A stretch of 64,000 nt of DNA from Escherichia coli (GTDB taxonomy: Bacteria > Pseudomonadota > Gammaproteobacteria > Enterobacterales > Enterobacteriaceae). The stretch lies in NCBI RefSeq assembly GCF_024502345.1, contig NZ_JALDNN010000001.1, one strand, 5' to 3'. Both the position numbers and the translations under genes were made by a program. This document shows positions 37,790-44,595 of the stretch, piece by piece (position 1 is the first letter of the stretch; the number at the start of each line of letters is the position of its first letter). Below the pieces are notes generated by a model. It saw only the letters and a list, made by a program, of their open reading frames with translations. It did no database searches and was not told the origin of the DNA.

Positions 37790-38229
37790 AAAGCCATGAC
37801 CTGAAGAAAGCGCTGTGTCAATGGACGGCGATGCTGGCCCTGGTGGTAAGCGGCGCGGTTTGGGCGGCTAATGGCGTCGATTTTAGCCAGTCGCCGGAAG
37901 TATCCGGGACGCAGGAAGGGGCCATTCGGATGCCAAAAGAGCAGGATCGGATGCCGCTGAACTATGTGAATCAGCCGCCAATGATCCCGCATAGCGTTGA
38001 AGGTTATCAGGTAACGACCAATACCAACCGCTGCTTGCAGTGCCACGGTGTCGAAAGCTATCGCACCACTGGCGCGCCGCGTATCAGTCCTACTCACTTT
38101 ATGGACAGCGACGGCAAAGTGGGCGCGGAAGTGGCTCCGCGTCGTTATTTCTGTCTGCAATGTCACGTACCGCAGGCCGATACCGCGCCAATCGTGGGGA
38201 ATACCTTTACCCCATCAAATACCGAATGA
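37786..38229 (+). CDS. napB: periplasmic nitrate reductase dihaem cytochrome c subunit; final codons appear replaced at the prophage junction
   Basis: [27 protein letters not shown]... with two CxxCH motifs (CLQCH x2); ends ...NTFTPSNTE whereas the remembered reference ends ...TPSKGYGK. Confidence 0.88.
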   Translation: MKSHDLKKALCQWTAMLALVVSGAVWAANGVDFSQSPEVSGTQEGAIRMPKEQDRMPLNYVNQPPMIPHSVEGYQVTTNTNRCLQCHGVESYRTTGAPRISPTHFMDSDGKVGAEVAPRRYFCLQCHVPQADTAPIVGNTFTPSNTE

Positions 38230-38671
38230 AGTGGACTATCGAAAATTGCAGGAACTGTTCACGCGGATCGCCATCGATAAACATATTCAGCAAAAGCTTG
38301 AACATCCTCACCACCAGCTGGTGGCTACCTACCAGTCATTAAACCGCAAGTATTCAGAATTGCTGGAGGAATACAAAATCCTTCGGCGCTGCTTCTCTGT
38401 TTCCGCTCTTGTTCCTTATACCGACGTATGGACACATAAGCCTGTTCAGTTTTATCCAGGCAAACATCCATGCGAAAAACCTGCCGACATGCTGAAACAG
38501 ATCATTAGCGCCAGCAGCAGACCGGGGGATATCGTTGCCGATTTCTTTATGGGCTCTGGTTCAACTGTGAAAGCTGCAATAGAACTTGGCCGTCGGGCGA
38601 TCGGCGTAGAACTGGAGGCAGACAGGTTTATACAGACCACCGAAGAGGTGGAAAAACTGAAAAAATCATAA
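38219..38671 (+). pseudogene. 5'-truncated phage DNA N6-adenine/N4-cytosine methyltransferase (C-terminal fragment only)
   Basis: HPCEKP and DIVADFFMGSGSTVKAAIELGRRAIGVELE (FxGxG SAM-binding motif I) present; no DPPY catalytic motif and no in-frame start after the napB junction. Confidence 0.6.
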
Positions 38672-38816
38672 CGATCACCACGCTCCCCCGTTGCTGTGGT
38701 GATCACCATCTTCAGGCACCGGGAATCATCCTTAATTTTTACTTGAACATAAGAGCCCGGTTGCCTGATCCCCTTCAATCACACACAGCGCCATCCGAAC
38801 TATCGGAGGTGAGGCT

Positions 38817-39095
38817 ATGACCAGAATGAGCACCATTTACAGCAGACTTTCATATGGATCAGGAACCACGCTTGCCGGCTGCGGTGTATCAGCGAAGGCA
38901 TATGCCGAAACAGCTAAAACAGCAAAAGAGGTGTCCTGGATGTTGGCCGACAGAATTGCAGGGTTAAGCCTGAGTGACTGGGCAATTATTGTCGGTATCG
39001 CATGCACAGTTATCACCTGTGCAGTGAACTGGTATTACAGGAAAAAGGAAAGGGAGGACCGGCTTAATGGCAATGTCACCAAAGCAGAAGAATAA
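38817..39095 (+). CDS. putative holin (pinholin-like, possible dual start MTRM)
   Basis: 92-aa ORF with strong RBS ggaggtga, hydrophobic TM segment WAIIVGIACTVITCAVNWYY and charged C-terminus; directly upstream of the endolysin. Confidence 0.6.
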   Translation: MTRMSTIYSRLSYGSGTTLAGCGVSAKAYAETAKTAKEVSWMLADRIAGLSLSDWAIIVGIACTVITCAVNWYYRKKEREDRLNGNVTKAEE

Positions 39096-39615
39096 ACTGA
39101 GCGCAGCGGTCGTTGGGTTAATTCTTGCCGGGGCTTCCGCACCCGTGATTCTCGATCAGTTTCTGGATGAGAAAGAGGGTAACAGCACAACAGCGTACAA
39201 GGACGGCTCTGGTATATGGACCATTTGTCGTGGCGCTACGATGGTTGATGGCAAGCCAGTAGTTCAGGGCATGAAGCTGTCTGCTGAGAAATGTTCCAAG
39301 GTGAACGCCATAGAACGCGACAAGGCGCTGGCGTGGGTCGAGCGAAACATCAAGGTGCCACTGACCGAACCACAGAAAGCCGGGATCGCGTCTTTCTGCC
39401 CATATAACATCGGTCCCGGAAAATGTTTCCCATCTACGTTCTATAAGCGAATAAATGCTGGCGACCGTGAAGGTGCCTGTGAAGCGATCCGCTGGTGGAT
39501 AAAAGACGGTGGTCGCGATTGTCGTCTGACCAAAGGGCAGAAGAACGGTTGCTATGGTCAGGTTGAACGGCGAGACCAGGAAAGCGCGTTGACGTGCTGG
39601 GGGATAGACCAGTGA
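39067..39615 (+). CDS. SAR endolysin (T4-lysozyme-like muramidase with N-terminal signal-anchor-release domain)
   Basis: N-terminal [19 protein letters not shown] hydrophobic segment followed by the E-x8-D-x5-T catalytic triad context ([20 protein letters not shown]). Confidence 0.85.
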
Positions 39616-40127
39616 GCCTGCGCTATCAGTTCATTGTTATTTTGTTGCTGGTGGCCGTTGCATTCTTCGCGGGTAGTGTATGGAGCAGCCGCGGTTGGGA
39701 AAAGAAGTGGGCCGAGCGTGACAGCGTAGAATCATCGCAAACAGCGAACGCACAGACCGCCGCTCGCATGATTGAACAAGGGCGTATTATTGCCCGTGAT
39801 GAGGCTGTAAAAGATGCACAAGCACAAGCCGCTAAATCCGCTGCCACTGCTGCTGGCCTGTCTGCCACTGTTAACCAGCTGCGTACCGAAGCAACAAAGC
39901 TTGCCACTCGCCTGGACGCCGCAAAGCACACCGCAGATCTTGCCACTGCCGTCAGAAGCAAAACAGCCGGAGCCGACGCCGCAGTGCTCGCCGACATGCT
40001 CGGACGCCTTGCAGAAGAAGCTCGATATTATGCTGAGCGATCTGACGAAAGCTACCGGGCAGGAATGACGTGTGAGCGCATTTACGACTCAGTGAGGCAG
40101 TCAAACAACAACAGGGTTAGAAGATGA
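39594..40127 (+). CDS. i-spanin Rz
   Basis: N-terminal TM ([15 protein letters not shown]) plus coiled-coil Ala/Gln-rich periplasmic domain; overlaps the endolysin end; contains the embedded Rz1 frame. Confidence 0.75.
39814..40068 (+). CDS. o-spanin Rz1 (lipoprotein) embedded in the +1 frame of Rz
   Basis: Signal peptide with lipobox-like LLTSC, then a Pro-rich mature region; entirely inside Rz. Confidence 0.65.
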
Positions 40128-40354
40128 ACGCAGAAAACCTAAGTGAAGCGTATTACCTCAATAACGATATAAAAGAACTACAACTTCAGAAAAGCATACT
40201 GGAAAGTGGTGCCGGACTTGGTGTGACAATCCAGTCTACCTATCAGGATAACGCCTTTCTTGATGCCATACGCCCGCATGCAGTGGCTGAACTTGATCGC
40301 CGTATTGTGGAGAAGAAAAAAAACCTCTCCACTCTGGGTGTTACATTCTCTTAA
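40124..40354 (+). CDS. hypothetical small prophage protein (76 aa)
   Basis: ORF starting 4 nt before the Rz stop (translational coupling); no recognisable motif. Confidence 0.35.
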
Positions 40355-40738
40355 ATGAGAACAACAATAAAAGGTTATGTCTGCTTTGCCACATTCTGAG
40401 AGTATGAGTTTTATTTGGTAGTCAATCAGTTACTTTATTGGTTTGCTTTCCGATGGAAGATAGATGTTTCCACAGAAGGGGCAAATTAACGTTATATTGT
40501 TTTTTATTCTCGACAGACTGTGCTTTGACTGGCGGGAGCAATGAGGACAAGTACTTTTCACATGGCGTAAAGTACGCATCTTGATATCTTTGAGTATCGA
40601 CATGTTGATTGTCCTGGTGGGCGGTTAACAACCATACACCACATGTTGGCTAATAGCTTCTTTTATAACCGTTACGATGTAGTCGTTAGCCATAATCAAT
40701 CAAGCCTCGCAATAGCGGGGCTTTTTAACAACTGAGGA

Positions 40739-40942
40739 ATGAGCATTACAGTAGTTCTTACAGCTAAGCAGATTGAAGACCTGGCTGCCTTCGCAAAAGA
40801 AGATGGCCAGCCACAATATACCATCACTACCGGAACAATCCCTGAGTTCGAAGCGGATGATGGCGAGGTTATCCCTGAGTACACCGGGCTGATTGCCTAT
40901 TCCGAGTCGCTAGAGCATAGCGTTCTACAGCTCGATAACTAA
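40739..40942 (+). CDS. hypothetical small acidic prophage protein (67 aa); a degenerate paralogue lies at about 42.78-42.96 kb
   Basis: ORF with the motif F-E-ADDG-x-I-P-x-Y-TGL; a similar C-terminal fragment (FDADDGTLSPNTLGLL...) recurs at 42823-42962. Confidence 0.35.
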   Translation: MSITVVLTAKQIEDLAAFAKEDGQPQYTITTGTIPEFEADDGEVIPEYTGLIAYSESLEHSVLQLDN

Positions 40943-40989
40943 CGAATCAACATAACTTTCCATCCGCCATGACACCACAATGCTCGTAG

Positions 40990-41110
40990 ACATGCCAGGA
41001 AGCCTGGCAGAAGAAGCTCGATACCATGCTGAACGCGCTGATGAAAACTACCGAGCAGGAATGACATGTGAGCGGATTTATGAGTCCGTAAAAATACTAA
41101 CAATGAACCG
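40990..41110 (+). pseudogene. remnant 3' end of a second Rz/Rz1 spanin gene
   Basis: Translates to ...[29 protein letters not shown]..., about 80 percent identical to the Rz C-terminus at 40000-40127; no upstream gene body. Confidence 0.6.
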
Positions 41111-41129
41111 TAGAGGAAAAATAATAGCT

Positions 41130-41514
41130 CTATAAATTAAGATGTTGACGGTTTTCGTGGATAAATTTGTGAATTTTTACTATGAAGGAAATACGACTCT
41201 TCCTTGAGTCAAAATCCCTGACAACTTAGGGTGATAGATAAAGGTCTTACGCAGCATGACATAATTTTCGATTTAAGCTATTTAAATTAATTTTTAAGAT
41301 CAAAACCCACTGAGATTTACTTACAAAACTAAACCTTGCTATGTCTGGTTAATCATGCGTTAATGAATGTCTGGTTTGTAACGAATTTATCTGAAGCAGT
41401 CGCTGTAATAATTTTATTCCTTGTTCCTGTTGAGATTTCCTTGTTAGCTTTTCTCTCTGATAAATTTTTTTCGGACCATTCTGCCCAAGGGCTTACTCAA
41501 TAAAGGTAATGTTT
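41130..41514 (+). promoter_or_regulatory. long AT-rich leader/promoter region upstream of the cold-shock gene
   Basis: About 380 bp AT-rich non-coding sequence before csp, as is typical of the long 5' UTRs of cspA-family genes. Confidence 0.35.
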
Positions 41515-41727
41515 ATGTCTAATAAAATGACTGGTTTAGTTAAATGGTTTAATCCTGAAAAAGGTTTTGGTTTTATCACTCCAAAAGATGGTAGTAAAGA
41601 TGTGTTTGTTCACTTCTCTGCTATCCAGAGTAATGATTTCAAGACGTTGAATGAGAATCAGGAAGTTGAATTTAGTGTTGAACAGGGACCTAAAGGCCCC
41701 ACGGCAGTTAATGTCGTGGCTGTATAA
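41515..41727 (+). CDS. cold-shock protein, CspA family (prophage-borne, CspB/CspI-like)
   Basis: [70 protein letters not shown] with RNP1/RNP2 motifs. Confidence 0.9.
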
Positions 41728-41931
41728 GGTAACTGTTATTACTAATAATATTCACTTCAGATGTCCGTGTTGCCACGGATCTCAGTACCGAACGTCAAAC
41801 TTTGATGTTACTGAAAAAAATCCTTTCGGAGCAAAATGTATTTTTTGCAAATCAACAATGATTACATTTGATAATATTGCACTGTACATTCGTTCTGGTC
41901 AGTCTTCGTTAGAATTCAGAAAATAAATTTC

Positions 41932-41953
41932 AGGCTCCTTATGGAGCCTTTTT
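41932..41953 (+). terminator. intrinsic terminator
   Basis: aggctcc-ttat-ggagcct hairpin followed by ttttt. Confidence 0.6.
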
Positions 41954-41999
41954 TGTATGCTGAACCGACAATCTCTGTAAGAGACATCACGGTAAAATT

Positions 42000-42230
42000 A
42001 TGAAAAAAGTCATCGTTTTTTTTAATGCAGAACCAGCAGTTGTTGTAACCGTAATGAAAGGTATTACTACGATAATGCGTGAGTTTCCCAATGGGGAAAA
42101 AGCACACCTACCCGTGATGTCAGCGGGATTTCCATCTCTGACAGGAGACCATAAAATAGTTTATGTAGCCTCTGATCGTGATGTCAGTTCAGAAGAGATC
42201 CTCGAGGCAGCCTCGAAGCTTTTGAAATGA
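42000..42230 (+). CDS. YmcE-like small protein (76 aa)
   Basis: 76-aa ORF immediately upstream of a gnsA/B-like gene, the same arrangement and size as ymcE-gnsA in K-12; identity not verified. Confidence 0.4.
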   Translation: MKKVIVFFNAEPAVVVTVMKGITTIMREFPNGEKAHLPVMSAGFPSLTGDHKIVYVASDRDVSSEEILEAASKLLK

Positions 42231-42434
42231 GATCTGGTTGTTTCGTGACCGACCCGGATTTTAGTACAGTGGTTTGTGTGGTCGCGAGCTCTTTTGCATG
42301 AAGATTGTACTGCAAACTATTGATAATTGAGTCTTTCTATTCTATCTTTTAAACATATCAGCGCTTATACAAGTGCTCTACGGGGAATGTAACATGCCTG
42401 GCGTTGATACGTTAGAGATCAAGAGAGGTAAACA

Positions 42435-42608
42435 ATGAACGTCGAAGATTTAAAAAGAAAAACTGAAGCGGATATTTCTGAATTCATCACAAAAAAAATT
42501 ATTGAACTCAAAAAAAAGACAGGAAAAGAAGTTTCCGATATCCAGTTTAATGCTCGTGAAAAAATGACTGGGCTTGAAAGCTATGATATTAAAATCACAT
42601 TAATCTAA
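42435..42608 (+). CDS. GnsA/GnsB-family protein (57 aa; below the ORF-track size cutoff)
   Basis: Manual translation MNVEDLKRKTEADISEFITKKIIELKKKTGKEVSDIQFNAREKMTGLESYDIKITLI, close to remembered GnsA/GnsB sequences. Confidence 0.8.
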   Translation: MNVEDLKRKTEADISEFITKKIIELKKKTGKEVSDIQFNAREKMTGLESYDIKITLI

Positions 42609-43049
42609 TTGTTATAAGACTCAGTTCGAGTGAAAAAGCATTATCTTGAAAGGTAATGCTTTTTTATTTCTGTCATAAAATTTAGAACGTTGTCAAAGCC
42701 TTCACTTCTAACCACAGATTTTCTGCTTACCTTTTAACGGGTCCTCCTTGACGATTCTGACCATCGAGGGGCAGCAGCGGCGCGGGATTTGGAGCATTTT
42801 TGATTCTTCACGCAACCATTTCAGCATTTGATGCTGATGACGGAACACTATCCCCGAATACACTGGGTTTGTTGCATTCTCTGATTCAAAAGAACACGGT
42901 GTGCTTCAACTTGGCTGAGCAGGCATTACAGCAGACATTCACTGAGTGCCTGCGACAAAGTTAAATGGCATCAAGCATGCGATGATGATTGATTAATAAT
43001 TGAGCTATGCATGGTATAATAAGCCCCATTCATTGAAAGGTTAACCACC

Positions 43050-43214
43050 ATGTCATTTTTCGATTATGCAATGCAGCGTGTTGGGCTTGCAGCCAATACG
43101 ACTGTCATGTGCCCGATATGCGGACATAAATCCACACACTCGACCACGAAAGTACGCCAACAACAGGCGTTACTTTGCCCTAAATGTAAATCGCTGTTTG
43201 TCATTCACAGATAA
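43050..43214 (+). CDS. hypothetical small zinc-ribbon protein (about 54 aa; below track cutoff)
   Basis: Manual translation MSFFDYAMQRVGLAANTTVMCPICGHKSTHSTTKVRQQQALLCPKCKSLFVIHR with CPxCG...CPKC; followed by terminator hairpins. Confidence 0.3.
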   Translation: MSFFDYAMQRVGLAANTTVMCPICGHKSTHSTTKVRQQQALLCPKCKSLFVIHR

Positions 43215-43233
43215 CATGCGACCTGCTGAATAT

Positions 43234-43256
43234 AACCGCCTACGGGCGGTTTTTTA
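43234..43256 (+). terminator. intrinsic terminator (a second hairpin gccactttcgagtggc + T-run follows at about 43271-43293)
   Basis: ccgcc-tacg-ggcgg hairpin followed by tttttt. Confidence 0.6.
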
Positions 43257-43370
43257 TTGCCATCACAAAGGCCACTTTCGAGTGGCTTTTTTAATGGTCA
43301 TCACGACGGGTATTACAGCAGGAATTACTGAGTGCCTGCGATAATGCTCAATATTTTTATCGGAGTGAAT

Positions 43371-43559
43371 ATGCCACCGCGCACACCGAAGGCCGGCCTG
43401 AAAGGGGCGATACAAAAAAGGGAAAAAATGAAAAGACATAAGCGAAATAAAAAAGCCACCACATCTGCAAATGTGATGGCTGGCATTCGGATTAATTCAG
43501 GTTGGCTGAATAAGTTAGCCGCAGATATTACTAAAATAATTAATGAAGCATGTCCCTAA
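43371..43559 (+). CDS. hypothetical small highly basic protein (62 aa)
   Basis: ggag RBS 5 nt before the ATG; translation MPPRTPKAGLKGAIQKREKMKRHKRNKKATTSANVMAGIRINSGWLNKLAADITKIINEACP. Confidence 0.35.
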   Translation: MPPRTPKAGLKGAIQKREKMKRHKRNKKATTSANVMAGIRINSGWLNKLAADITKIINEACP

Positions 43560-43947
43560 TCTCATCTGAGATATCTCTTGGCCCTGCAGGCTGAGGCGCA
43601 ACCAACCGGGTCGGAAGTCTCTCGAAGAAACCACCACCACCATGATGATGAAAACCCCGGTTATTTTTATAACTATTGAAGTTACTGTCGGTAGTGAGAA
43701 GGATGTTGCACTGGTGCGAGCAGTCAACAACAACGACATCACCTGCATTCAGGTGCATTCGTTTGTGAAGAAATTGCATAAGTCTCCTTATCAAGAGGCA
43801 ATCAGCACTCCTCTCAAGGCTGGTACGCCAACGTCCCACCGCTGACGGGCTGAGCCATTACCTTACCCAGACTCAACGATAAGTAACATCCTGATATTCA
43901 GACAGTAACTGTAATCGATAATGCTGAAGAATAGGCAGTAAATACAG

Positions 43948-44595
43948 GTGACTGATATGGCAACACTGAAGGATTTATCAAACCAGTTAAAGCAACTGCA
44001 AAAGCAAATCCCGTTTGCCACAGCTCAGGCGATGACAAAAGTTGTACGCCAGATTGAGTTGGCTCAGAAGACGGCATTCGAACGACATCTGGAGAGCCCC
44101 ACGCCGTTTACCGTTAAATCAGTTGGTTCGGTGGCGGCAAGAAAGAACAATCTGACCGCAAAGGTTTTTGTCCGTGATACCGCTGCTGGTTATCTGGAAC
44201 CATTCGAGTTTGGCGGAGAGCACAAGCTCAATAGCCAGGCTCTATTAAATCCCAAGAACGTTAAGCTAAACAAATACGGCAACATGCCGCGTAATAAGCT
44301 CTCACAGCTTAAAGCAAAGGAAAATGTATTCGTAGGTGAGGTTGATGGCGTTAACGCTGTCTGGCAGCGTAAGAAGCCGATGAAAGCTAAGAAGCGACGG
44401 GCCAAACGTTCCGCTAACGGGACGCGAAGACCGAAACGCAAACAGCGTTCTCCAAAGCTTTTGATCCGGTTTGGTGATGCGCTACCTGTGACTCCAGTGC
44501 TGGGGTATATGGATAGGGCCCGTACCATGGCGAACGCACTGCTACCGTCTGCTTTAAATCAGGCGATAGCAGAAGCCATCAGGACGGCAAAATAA
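43948..44595 (+). CDS. hypothetical prophage protein (215 aa) with Lys/Arg-rich segment
   Basis: ORF with a central basic tract KKPMKAKKRRAKRSANGTRRPKRKQRSPK; no recognisable catalytic motif. Confidence 0.45.
   Translation: MTDMATLKDLSNQLKQLQKQIPFATAQAMTKVVRQIELAQKTAFERHLESPTPFTVKSVGSVAARKNNLTAKVFVRDTAAGYLEPFEFGGEHKLNSQALLNPKNVKLNKYGNMPRNKLSQLKAKENVFVGEVDGVNAVWQRKKPMKAKKRRAKRSANGTRRPKRKQRSPKLLIRFGDALPVTPVLGYMDRARTMANALLPSALNQAIAEAIRTAK

Follow-up and report, generated by a model that had tools for sequence, protein, structure and literature searches.

An intact lambdoid-phage lysis cassette with a dual-start holin, a SAR endolysin and nested spanins in a truncated Escherichia coli prophage

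The four lysis genes

Four genes, all on the plus strand, occupy positions 38817 to 40127 of the window, by which we mean the whole 64,000-nucleotide stretch of Escherichia coli DNA that was analysed. They encode a holin, an endolysin and the two spanins Rz and Rz1. A sequence-only reading had placed here a SAR-endolysin/holin cassette with a nested spanin pair, and all the features it named are present in the sequence, with the genes at the positions claimed for them. The cassette is an intact and ordinary lambdoid-phage lysis module, made up of a dual-start holin, a SAR lysozyme and nested Rz/Rz1. Modules of this type are already known from phages, RefSeq and sequenced phages already contain the proteins, and novelty is low. 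The discovery value is correspondingly small and lies in the correct annotation of a standard lysis module. That the cassette is intact is supported by perfect matches elsewhere: three IMG/VR loci, on two contigs, have a holin 100% identical to this one, and a prophage of E. coli in which Q and terminase are still present has the identical endolysin.

The holin gene (38817-39095, plus strand) runs from an ATG at 38817 to a TAA ending at 39095 and encodes 92 residues with the N-terminus MTRM. Its 3' end overlaps by 29 nt the endolysin gene (39067-39615, plus strand; ATG 39067 to TGA 39615), which encodes a 182-residue muramidase of the T4-lysozyme fold. The endolysin matches Pfam PF00959 (E = 7.6e-24), and its AlphaFold model (pLDDT 75.7) superimposes on the structures 4ZPU and 3HDE over 176-184 columns with TM scores of 0.66-0.71, and also matches the fold of T4 lysozyme. 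The catalytic triad E37, D46 and T52 (Glu-8aa-Asp-5aa-Thr) is invariant in 25 aligned sequences. Ahead of the lysozyme region, where a signal-anchor-release (SAR) segment had been claimed, lies a hydrophobic stretch of 19 uncharged residues (residues 11-29, 39097-39153, plus strand; mean Kyte-Doolittle hydropathy 2.2, 47% small residues). The proposed comparison with R21 of phage 21 proved to be a full-length one: with phmmer, residues 4-153 align to residues 2-147 of the 3HDE chain (E = 1.5e-17), the N-terminal hydrophobic segment included, and the alignment with RrrD (4ZPU) is likewise full-length.

Both the window endolysin and P1 Lyz are Sec-exported SAR endolysins, export being predicted for the former, but P1 Lyz has a Cys in its SAR segment and is controlled by disulfide caging, whereas residues 1-35 are free of Cys in the window protein, as they are at all 84 related loci. 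Because the alignment to R21 is full-length, the triad is kept and the SAR segment lacks Cys, we assign the endolysin to the R21 type; the missing Cys would point to steric control or control through refolding rather than to disulfide caging. The sole A-x-A site in the N-terminus is ASA at residues 22-24, immediately followed by Pro25, and a Pro at +1 blocks signal peptidase I. That Pro, together with the alignment of the segment to the SAR helix that R21 retains, led us to judge a cleavable signal peptide unlikely.

The i-spanin gene Rz extends from 39612 (or 39594) to 40127 on the plus strand. The start is either the GTG at 39612, which forms a GTGA overlap with the endolysin stop codon, has GGGGA 8 nt upstream and is the start used in RefSeq for a 98.5% identical prophage, or a GTG at 39594. 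Rz matches Pfam DUF2514 (E = 4.8e-49) and phrog_312, 'Rz-like spanin' (E = 4e-56). An N-terminal TM helix (residues 7-25, Kyte-Doolittle 2.5) is combined with a helical periplasmic domain rich in Ala, and the only Cys is at position 154. As the sequence-only reading had it, Rz1 is wholly embedded in the +1 frame of Rz: the o-spanin gene (39814-40068, plus strand) lies inside Rz at an offset of 202 nt and ends 59 nt before the Rz stop. Rz1 carries the lipobox L-T-S-C23 (Cys codon 39880-39882) with Val at +2, and its mature form would have 62 residues, 16% of them Pro, and Cys residues at positions 36 and 40 of that form. Both the embedded Rz/Rz1 architecture and the lipobox consensus [LVI][ASTVI][GAS]C, which LTSC fits, are described in PMC6139136. 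Rz1 also matches phrog_11621, 'Rz-like spanin' (E = 1.4e-7), a crude regular-expression search recovers an embedded +1 lipoprotein reading frame in 58 related loci, and the homologue in Nissle keeps C23 but not C16. The RefSeq feature tables of two related E. coli prophages contain no Rz1/o-spanin CDS, and one should be added to the annotation of both.

Related cassettes and the character of the holin

The gene order of the cassette is that of phage 21 (S21-R21-Rz-Rz1) and of DLP12 (essD-rrrD-rzpD/rzoD). In these systems, as in the window, the holin is small, its M-x-x-M dual start includes a basic residue in the extension, and a hairpin is predicted to overlap its Shine-Dalgarno sequence. Also common to all are a SAR endolysin that has the E-x8-D-x5-T triad and a Cys-free SAR segment, and an Rz1 nested in Rz. 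The proteins themselves differ. The endolysin is about 33% identical to its counterparts, and the window Rz is instead a DUF2514 protein, similar to gp55 of N15, with no other Pfam match, including to PF03245 (Phage_lysis), the family that marks the gene in the Rz position at two related loci. The holin is distantly similar to EssD, with which it shares the MxxM start, a YG(T/S) motif and an N-x-Y-[YF]-[KR]-x-KE tail, but it is about 24% identical (pairwise E = 0.002) and 21 residues longer, with a charged segment of 28 residues between the putative TMD1 and TMD2.

Closer relatives are found in the coliphages mEp237 and HK225, the Klebsiella phage Mulock and the prophages of E. coli Nissle 1917 and 027_SK3, all of which have the same holin and leader as the window, and where the annotation of these genes names a holin, a SAR endolysin and spanins. 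The holin of HK225 is 98% identical to that of the window in amino-acid sequence and that of Mulock about 76%; at the nucleotide level, identity is 88-91% for mEp237 and HK225. The endolysin subfamily of the window recurs in mEp237, Nissle and 027_SK3, whereas HK225 and Mulock combine an R21-like endolysin with other spanin types. A further likeness is to the linear-plasmid prophage N15, whose genes 52-55 follow the same order (DNA methyltransferase, stem-loop, holin, lysozyme, DUF2514 protein). Gene 55 has about 80% nucleotide identity to the window Rz, and the N15 holin (gene 53, 101 aa) is absent from the nucleotide matches to the window holin region.

To which kind of holin does the first gene belong? 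The protein matches Pfam PF16080, the HP1 holin family (51.8 bits, cut-off 28.8; match limited to residues 41-78), the holin group phrog_20 (E = 1e-19) and, marginally, PF04971, the phage 21 S family (27.9 bits, cut-off 26). NCBIfam has no model for the holin, Rz or Rz1, and we found no experimental work in the literature on this enterobacterial holin subfamily. The founder of PF16080, Hol of the Haemophilus phage HP1 (HP1 Hol), behaved as a pinholin in experiments and has a SAR endolysin as its partner; its expression was lethal without lysis and caused no leakage of beta-galactosidase (PMC7312051). In HP1, a P2-like myovirus rather than a lambdoid phage, the holin gene likewise overlaps a downstream SAR muramidase gene. 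HP1 Hol lacks a dual start, whereas one is near-invariant in the window subfamily; an unusual topology was reported for HP1 Hol, and TMD predictors disagreed between one and two helices (PMC7312051).

Topology is similarly ambiguous for the window holin. Hydropathy reveals a single robust TM helix, TMD2 (residues 55-74, followed by a basic C-terminal tail), so the reading frame upstream of the endolysin has a clear membrane helix. One face of this helix, as read from the sequence, consists of small and polar residues (G60, T64, T67/C68 and N71). The putative TMD1 (residues 11-26) is short and polar, with 16 uncharged residues of which 75% are G/A/S/T/C; its mean hydropathy of 0.70 is the same as that of EssD TMD1, over 16 versus 22 uncharged residues. 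The AlphaFold model, built with 33 homologues, is poor (pLDDT 58.8) and shows residues 1-27 as coil, with no helix at TMD1. Because the candidate TMD1 is short, composed of small and polar residues, and modelled as coil, an S21-like topology with two TMDs is putative. A remoter possibility is that the holins of this subfamily are single-pass, N-out pinholins and that the dual start controls when an N-terminal tail of 54 residues is translocated.

Genomic context bears on the same question. The holins of 85 related loci were extracted by coordinates, and across 86 of 86 related loci, with four endolysin subfamilies, a SAR endolysin follows the holin and a soluble endolysin never does. Three of these subfamilies account for all 84 readable viral or prophage loci; two relatives from Pectobacteriaceae, with holin identity of about 60-66%, have the fourth type, with a Cys inside the hydrophobic segment. 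These partner endolysins, from Pectobacterium and Brenneria, presumably resemble P1 Lyz. Physical linkage partly forces the association, because the endolysin gene begins within the 3' part of the holin gene.

It had been argued that the upstream membrane protein is probably a pinholin because the endolysin is of SAR type. That argument is invalid by itself, since P1 Lyz is accompanied by the holin LydA and the antiholin LydB (PMC9025707); LydA is unrelated to the window holin, and the P1 antiholin is the product of a separate gene. What the argument concluded nevertheless has independent support: membership of PF16080, the marginal match to the phage 21 S family and the exclusive pairing with SAR endolysins make the window holin a probable pinholin, and probable is as far as we go because one TM helix is robust and the putative TMD1 is short and polar. 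The competing explanation is that the protein makes large holes in the canonical way, or is a single-pass N-out/C-in holin of another mechanistic class, and simply co-occurs with SAR endolysins, in the way that LydA co-occurs with Lyz. The lone robust helix and a phage 21 S family score barely above the cut-off fit that explanation. On the other hand, the founder of PF16080 kills without lysis or enzyme leakage, no soluble endolysin occurs at the 86 loci, and TMD2 has a small and polar face. We regard a large-hole or other-class holin as unlikely.

The dual start and the leader hairpin

The holin gene is preceded by an untranslated leader (38711-38816, plus strand) that is conserved from a TTCAGGC block to the start codon in phages with unrelated upstream genes. 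Two start codons are available: Met1 (38817) gives a 92-residue product, the putative antiholin, and Met4 (38826) an 89-residue product, the putative holin. Both are well conserved. In an alignment of 33 diverse homologues M4 is invariant and M1 is conserved in at least 90%, and position 3 is K or R in 31 of the 32 aligned holins that include the first start, the remaining one (P0094) having I. The N-terminus reads MTRMS at 79 of 85 loci and MTKMS at the other six, and the Pectobacteriaceae relatives have MRRM and MTKM. The sequence-only reading had likened MTRM to the dual start of lambda S. The likeness to a dual start stands, but the closer analogue is the MKSM of phage 21/DLP12 rather than the MKM of lambda. 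A role for the extra N-terminal positive charge has been established for S107 and S21-71 (PMC9636201).

Within the leader a hairpin (38789-38811, plus strand; CGCC-A-UCCGA / UCGGA-GGUG) is predicted that would sequester a GGAGG (38805-38809) situated 7 nt before the first AUG, while a GAGG (38811-38814), 11 nt before the AUG of Met4, stays free. In the window leader alone the stability of this hairpin is not unusual (z = -1.77), but each of the 26 distinct leaders keeps it, with energies of -7.4 to -12 kcal/mol when they are folded separately. Compensatory variants occur in three independent arrangements (UCCGU/ACGGA, CUCCG/CGGAG and CCCC/GGGG), the hairpin is also present in the Brenneria and Pectobacterium relatives, and a comparable hairpin, again overlapping the Shine-Dalgarno sequence, forms when the DLP12 essD leader is folded. 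The leaders were folded one by one rather than pair-counted on a MAFFT alignment, which we abandoned because variable loop length misaligns the fifth pair and the divergent arms of two leaders (L037 and L082). Rfam contains no known RNA family matching the holin leader or the inverted repeat described below; its matches within 38000-44000 all lie downstream and include the cspA thermoregulator. The folding evidence makes the hairpin a candidate sdi-like start-site selector, that is, an mRNA structure sequestering the Shine-Dalgarno sequence of Met1 and partitioning initiation between the two starts, similar to the control known from lambda and phage 21.

Taken together, these observations suggest, with a probability that we put at roughly 0.8, that the cassette is an intact lambdoid-phage lysis operon working in the manner of phage 21. 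Under such a scheme the hairpin would hide the Shine-Dalgarno sequence that lies at the right distance from Met1, so that most ribosomes would start at Met4 and make the 89-residue holin. A minority starting at Met1 would produce the 92-residue form; its extra N-terminal Arg would slow the emergence of the N-terminal region into the periplasm, so that this form would act as an antiholin. The holin, related to those of HP1 and phage 21, would accumulate in the inner membrane until a timed collapse of the proton-motive force, most likely via small 'pinholes'. The endolysin, after Sec export, would stay inactive in the membrane, anchored by its SAR segment; on depolarisation it would be released, refold and cleave the murein, after which Rz in the inner membrane and the lipoprotein Rz1 in the outer membrane would disrupt the outer membrane. 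The conserved hairpin and the near-invariant M-x-[K/R]-M start could make this holin subfamily, widespread in enterobacteria, a convenient second dual-start pinholin system; the subfamily would also be useful for asking whether a 16-residue polar segment can be a releasable TMD1.

The upstream repeat and the state of the prophage

A spacer of 145 bp separates the holin start from the stop codon (38671) of a DNA methyltransferase gene. As the sequence-only reading had noted, it contains a perfect 9-bp inverted repeat without a T-run (38673-38704, plus strand), with arms GATCACCAC (38673-38681) and GTGGTGATC (38696-38704) and a 14-nt loop; ACCATCTTC follows directly on the second arm, hence the absence of a U-tract. 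The repeat is more than chance. A perfect 9-bp inverted repeat with a loop of 3-20 nt occurs in 0.56% of shuffled 145-bp spacers, and as RNA the repeat folds at -17 kcal/mol (z = -4.06), which none of 200 shuffles equals.

A terminator scan did not call the repeat, but mEp237, HK225, Mulock and many IMG/VR loci have at this point a true, GC-rich hairpin with a T-run, about 10 nt before the same TTCAGGC block. This suggests that the repeat is the U-tract-less counterpart, at the 3' end of the methylase gene, of the intrinsic terminator of related phages. It might also be imagined as a DNA-level site, protein-binding or methylation-sensitive, since GATC occurs in both arms, the repeat abuts the stop codon of a methyltransferase gene and the lack of a U-tract means that it is not a canonical terminator. 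We find that improbable: related phages that have no methylase gene carry GC-rich hairpins with T-runs at exactly this position, a stem-loop is annotated in N15 between the methylase gene and the holin gene, and in one variant of the repeat (L008) a C-to-T change leaves the bases paired only through a G-U wobble, a sign of constraint on an RNA structure.

The methyltransferase gene is itself a fragment. Its remaining 3' part (38220-38671, plus strand; about 43% of the gene) matches Pfam PF01555 at profile positions 132-215 of 221 only, and aligns from near nt 604 of the intact 1053-nt gene of E. coli 027_SK3. The junction, read directly at 38219/38220, joins it to the 3' end of napB. The prophage is thus truncated: a deletion has fused napB to the middle of the methylase gene and the left arm has been lost. 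In consequence Q and the late promoter are absent and the cassette, structurally intact, has lost its normal control, unlike those of mEp237, HK225, Mulock and the Nissle 1917 and 027_SK3 prophages, which keep Q and a complete late region.

Absence of the late promoter makes activity of the cassette in this genome uncertain, and we lean slightly towards its being a silent relic here, unexpressed without Q and pR' and with no present host function. The junction lies inside the methylase gene and the prophage parts upstream of it are absent from the window, a scan for promoters gave no sigma-70-like site in the stretch from napB to the holin, and the methylase fragment, about 450 nt without an obvious translation start, should favour Rho-dependent polarity. 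Conversely, none of the four reading frames is broken, and each is the same or almost the same as in apparently complete prophages, and the cassette is downstream of and co-oriented with the nap operon, with only a U-tract-less hairpin between them. Read-through from nap, induced anaerobically by nitrate, could in principle trigger autolysis of the host or low-level expression of the lysis genes, in which case a phage lysis clock would have been accidentally rewired to a respiratory signal; we consider this very improbable. The operon concerned, napFDAGHB, is controlled by Fnr and NarP, and the lysis operon lies directly downstream of it in the same orientation. The junction between napB and the methylase gene documents a prophage lysis cassette stranded behind a host operon.

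Gene layout and the endolysin

The sequence-only reading of this cassette is essentially right in both its observation and its interpretation. To it we add comparative support for the dual start together with an RNA hairpin, the exclusive pairing of the holin with SAR endolysins, doubt over TMD1, a terminator-position reading of the upstream repeat, and a putative deletion fusing the cassette to the nap operon.

As had been stated, four overlapping reading frames, all on the plus strand, can be read in the window at 38817-40127. These are a 92-aa holin (ATG 38817 to TAA 39095; N-terminus MTRM), a 182-aa endolysin (ATG 39067 to TGA 39615) that shares 29 nt with the holin, Rz (GTG 39612, or 39594, to 40127; 171 aa counted from 39612) and the 84-aa Rz1 (39814-40068), which lies entirely within Rz in the +1 frame at an offset of 202 nt. 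For Rz we prefer the start at 39612 over that at 39594; this GTG and the endolysin stop share GTGA, GGGGA stands before it, and the RefSeq start of Rz in a 98.5% identical prophage is the equivalent one. The cassette is a known kind of module, annotated already in mEp237, HK225, Mulock and many prophages. The transcription unit probably includes a fifth gene, a 76-aa ORF (40124-40354) whose start overlaps the Rz stop codon as ATGA and which has a full-length match to PHROG 5415 (unknown function; E = 3e-35).

The endolysin belongs to Pfam Phage_lysozyme (E = 7.6e-24). In a PDB comparison, its residues 4-153 align with the full-length phage 21 enzyme R21 (3HDE; E = 1.5e-17), and it also aligns with RrrD (4ZPU), the DLP12 enzyme; both alignments take in the N-terminal hydrophobic segment. 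Residues 11-29, the signal-anchor-release (SAR) segment claimed earlier, are without charge and 47% Gly/Ala/Ser. The sole A-x-A site is directly followed by Pro, which works against signal-peptidase cleavage. The E-x8-D-x5-T triad (E37, D46, T52) is invariant in 25 diverse relatives, and the AlphaFold model (pLDDT 75.7) matches T4 lysozyme as well as 4ZPU and 3HDE (176-184 columns, TM 0.66-0.71). Since there is no Cys in residues 1-35, the protein is, on sequence grounds, an R21-type SAR enzyme and not of the disulfide-caged P1 Lyz type.

Members of the 182-aa subfamily have eight Cys in the periplasmic part (residues 54-177) and a Cys-bearing insertion of ~10 residues that R21/RrrD-type enzymes do not have, which suggests several disulfides. 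At three related loci (L011, L023 and L031) the SAR core is followed by ASA-S, not ASA-P (residues 22-26), in principle a candidate signal-peptidase site.

Holin family, topology and dual start

The holin had been called a probable pinholin on the strength of the SAR endolysin. That step does not hold by itself, because in P1 a SAR endolysin, Lyz, goes with the holin LydA (PMC9025707). For independent evidence we asked which endolysin accompanies the holin across IMG/VR, phage and prophage loci. The gene after the holin is a SAR-type lysozyme in all 84 readable loci, and these enzymes fall into three subfamilies: the 182-aa type of the window, an R21/RrrD-like 190/167-aa type and a 164-aa type. 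Two relatives, in Brenneria and Pectobacterium (holin identity ~60-66%), carry a fourth type with a Cys within the hydrophobic segment, which we take to resemble P1 Lyz. A soluble endolysin was never found beside the holin among the 84 loci and these relatives, though the linkage is partly structural, since the endolysin gene begins within the 3' end of the holin gene.

The holin scores 51.8 bits against PF16080 (HP1 holin family; cut-off 28.8) and marginally against PF04971 (phage 21 S; 27.9 bits, cut-off 26), and it matches PHROG 20 'holin'. HP1 Hol, the founder of PF16080, kills E. coli with neither lysis nor beta-galactosidase leakage, has a SAR endolysin as its partner and was judged a pinholin by its authors (PMC7312051). 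With PF16080 membership and SAR-only pairing in its favour, we put the probability that the holin is a pinholin at roughly two in three.

Hydropathy indicates one unambiguous TM helix (residues 55-74), with a basic tail after it. The segment that may be TMD1, residues 11-26 (LSYGSGTTLAGCGVSA), has a mean hydropathy of 0.70, the same as TMD1 of EssD, the S21 homologue of DLP12; its uncharged stretch is 16 residues, against 22 in EssD. The candidate two-TMD topology is left in doubt because this segment is short and because the AlphaFold model made with 33 homologues, itself poor (pLDDT 58.8), shows residues 1-27 as coil. TMD predictors likewise disagree over HP1 Hol (PMC7312051). In direct comparison the holin is only 24% identical to EssD; the landmarks MxxM, YG(T/S), L-D-[KR], S-x-W-A and N-x-Y-[YF]-[KR]-x-KE are common to both. 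Between the putative TMD1 and TMD2 lies a 9-nt tandem repeat (38910-38927; ACAGCTAAA ACAGCAAAA) encoding TAK-TAK; its copy number in homologues is one, two or three, for proteins of 89, 92 or 95 aa, a slippage-type length polymorphism.

The MTRM start had been likened to the dual start of lambda S. Across 33 diverse homologues, M1 is conserved in at least 90% and M4 is invariant, and among the 32 sequences covering the first start, 31 have K or R at position 3. At the DNA level, MTRMS opens 79 of 85 loci and MTKMS six, and the Brenneria and Pectobacterium relatives start MRRM and MTKM. In the established model, S107 and S21-71 owe their antiholin role to an additional positive charge at the N-terminus (PMC9636201, citing Blasi 1990 and Barenboim 1999), and by analogy we infer a device of this type here. 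MKSM of phage 21 is a nearer analogue of the MTRM start than MKM of lambda.

The leader (...CGCCAUCCGAACUAUCGGAGGUGAGGCUAUGACCAGAAUG) folds into a hairpin at 38789-38811 (-11.8 kcal/mol; CGCC-A-UCCGA paired with UCGGA-GGUG) in which the GGAGG 7 nt before AUG1 is buried, while the GAGG 11 nt before AUG4 stays free. As its stability in the window sequence alone is unremarkable (z = -1.77), the evidence is comparative: on folding, the hairpin is kept in 26/26 distinct leaders, with the compensatory arrangements UCCGU/ACGGA, CUCCG/CGGAG and CCCC/GGGG. An analogous hairpin forms when the essD leader of DLP12 is folded, and it overlaps the Shine-Dalgarno sequence there.

The spanin pair

Rz contains a single Cys, a TM helix at its N-terminus (residues 7-25) and a helical domain rich in Ala; it matches DUF2514 (E = 4.8e-49) and PHROG 312 'Rz-like spanin', and N15 gene 55 shares ~80% DNA identity with it. 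Rz1 matches PHROG 11621, and its lipobox, L-T-S-C23 with Val after the Cys, agrees with the published consensus (PMC6139136). C23 is the predicted lipidated residue because a Nissle homologue retains C23, not C16. Mature Rz1 has 62 residues, 16% of them Pro, and two further Cys. A +1 lipoprotein ORF was found embedded in Rz at 58 related loci; the RefSeq feature tables of two related E. coli prophages hold no Rz1/o-spanin CDS, a frequent omission (PMC6139136).

Some 0.9 kb past the intact gene there is an orphan 3' fragment of another Rz allele (40990-41135; ~79% identity across ~110 nt), suggesting that 40128-40980 was inserted through recombination within Rz.

The upstream repeat and the nap junction

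The 9-bp perfect inverted repeat reported in the 145-bp spacer 5' of the holin is present, GATCACCAC / GTGGTGATC at 38673-38681 and 38696-38704, with a 14-nt loop, followed by ACCATCTTC and no T-run. Only 0.56% of shuffled spacers have a comparable repeat, and as RNA it reaches -17 kcal/mol (z = -4.06; 0/200 shuffles equal). Structure at the RNA level is argued by the variant at the related locus L008, where pairing survives only through G-U wobble.

In an alignment, ~105 nt from TTCAGGC (38711) to the holin start codon are conserved among phages with differing upstream genes. Directly before this block, a GC-rich hairpin followed by a T-run, a canonical intrinsic terminator, stands in mEp237, HK225 and Mulock and in most of the IMG/VR loci; loci with the methylase gene upstream have in its place the GATCACCAC hairpin without a U-tract. 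N15 shares the order methylase, stem-loop, holin, lysozyme, DUF2514 protein. We read the repeat as a hairpin belonging to the 3' end of the methylase insert. It would correspond, in weak or decayed form, to the terminator by which the lysis genes are normally insulated and which Q-modified polymerase would read through. The slot just 5' of the holin leader has different cargo in the Pectobacterium/Brenneria relatives (L090 1924-2382 and L089 1620-2281, both minus strand), an AcrIF11-like ADP-ribosyltransferase (anti-CRISPR family) in one and a HicA/HicB toxin-antitoxin pair in the other, and appears to mark a moron insertion hotspot.

The window comes from the E. coli chromosome, and as far as 38219 its nap operon shows 100% identity to many strains. 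At 38219/38220, napB (...CCCCATCAAA) runs, with CAA microhomology, into a phage methyltransferase gene of 1053 nt at its nt ~604 (TACCGAATG...), and NapB lacks its last five residues, ending ...TPSNTE, not ...TPSKGYGK. Neither napC nor ccmA, next after napB in other E. coli, was found after napB or in the window. The interval 38205-38235 is probably a deletion or rearrangement junction, with misassembly as the alternative; none of the complete E. coli genomes of our collection has the junction. Q, which lies ~3.3 kb upstream of the holin in intact relatives, is missing upstream of the cassette in the window, as is the late promoter, while terminase and head genes carry on downstream. Three IMG/VR loci, on two contigs, carry a holin with 100% identity to the one in the window, and strain 027_SK3 has an identical endolysin. 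The cassette, in the same orientation as nap, is intact, with its normal control lost.

Downstream, at 40430-43214, comes a moron-like block such as Qin-type and similar E. coli prophages typically carry. It contains two YnfU-like zinc-ribbon ORFs at 40430-40603 (minus strand) and 43050-43214, the full cspA thermoregulator 5'UTR of a CspA-family gene (41370-41786; Rfam RF01766, 142.8 bits), a YmcF-like ORF (41651-41926), a sub-threshold STnc220 sRNA match (41884-41960) and a GnsA/GnsB-family ORF (42435-42608).
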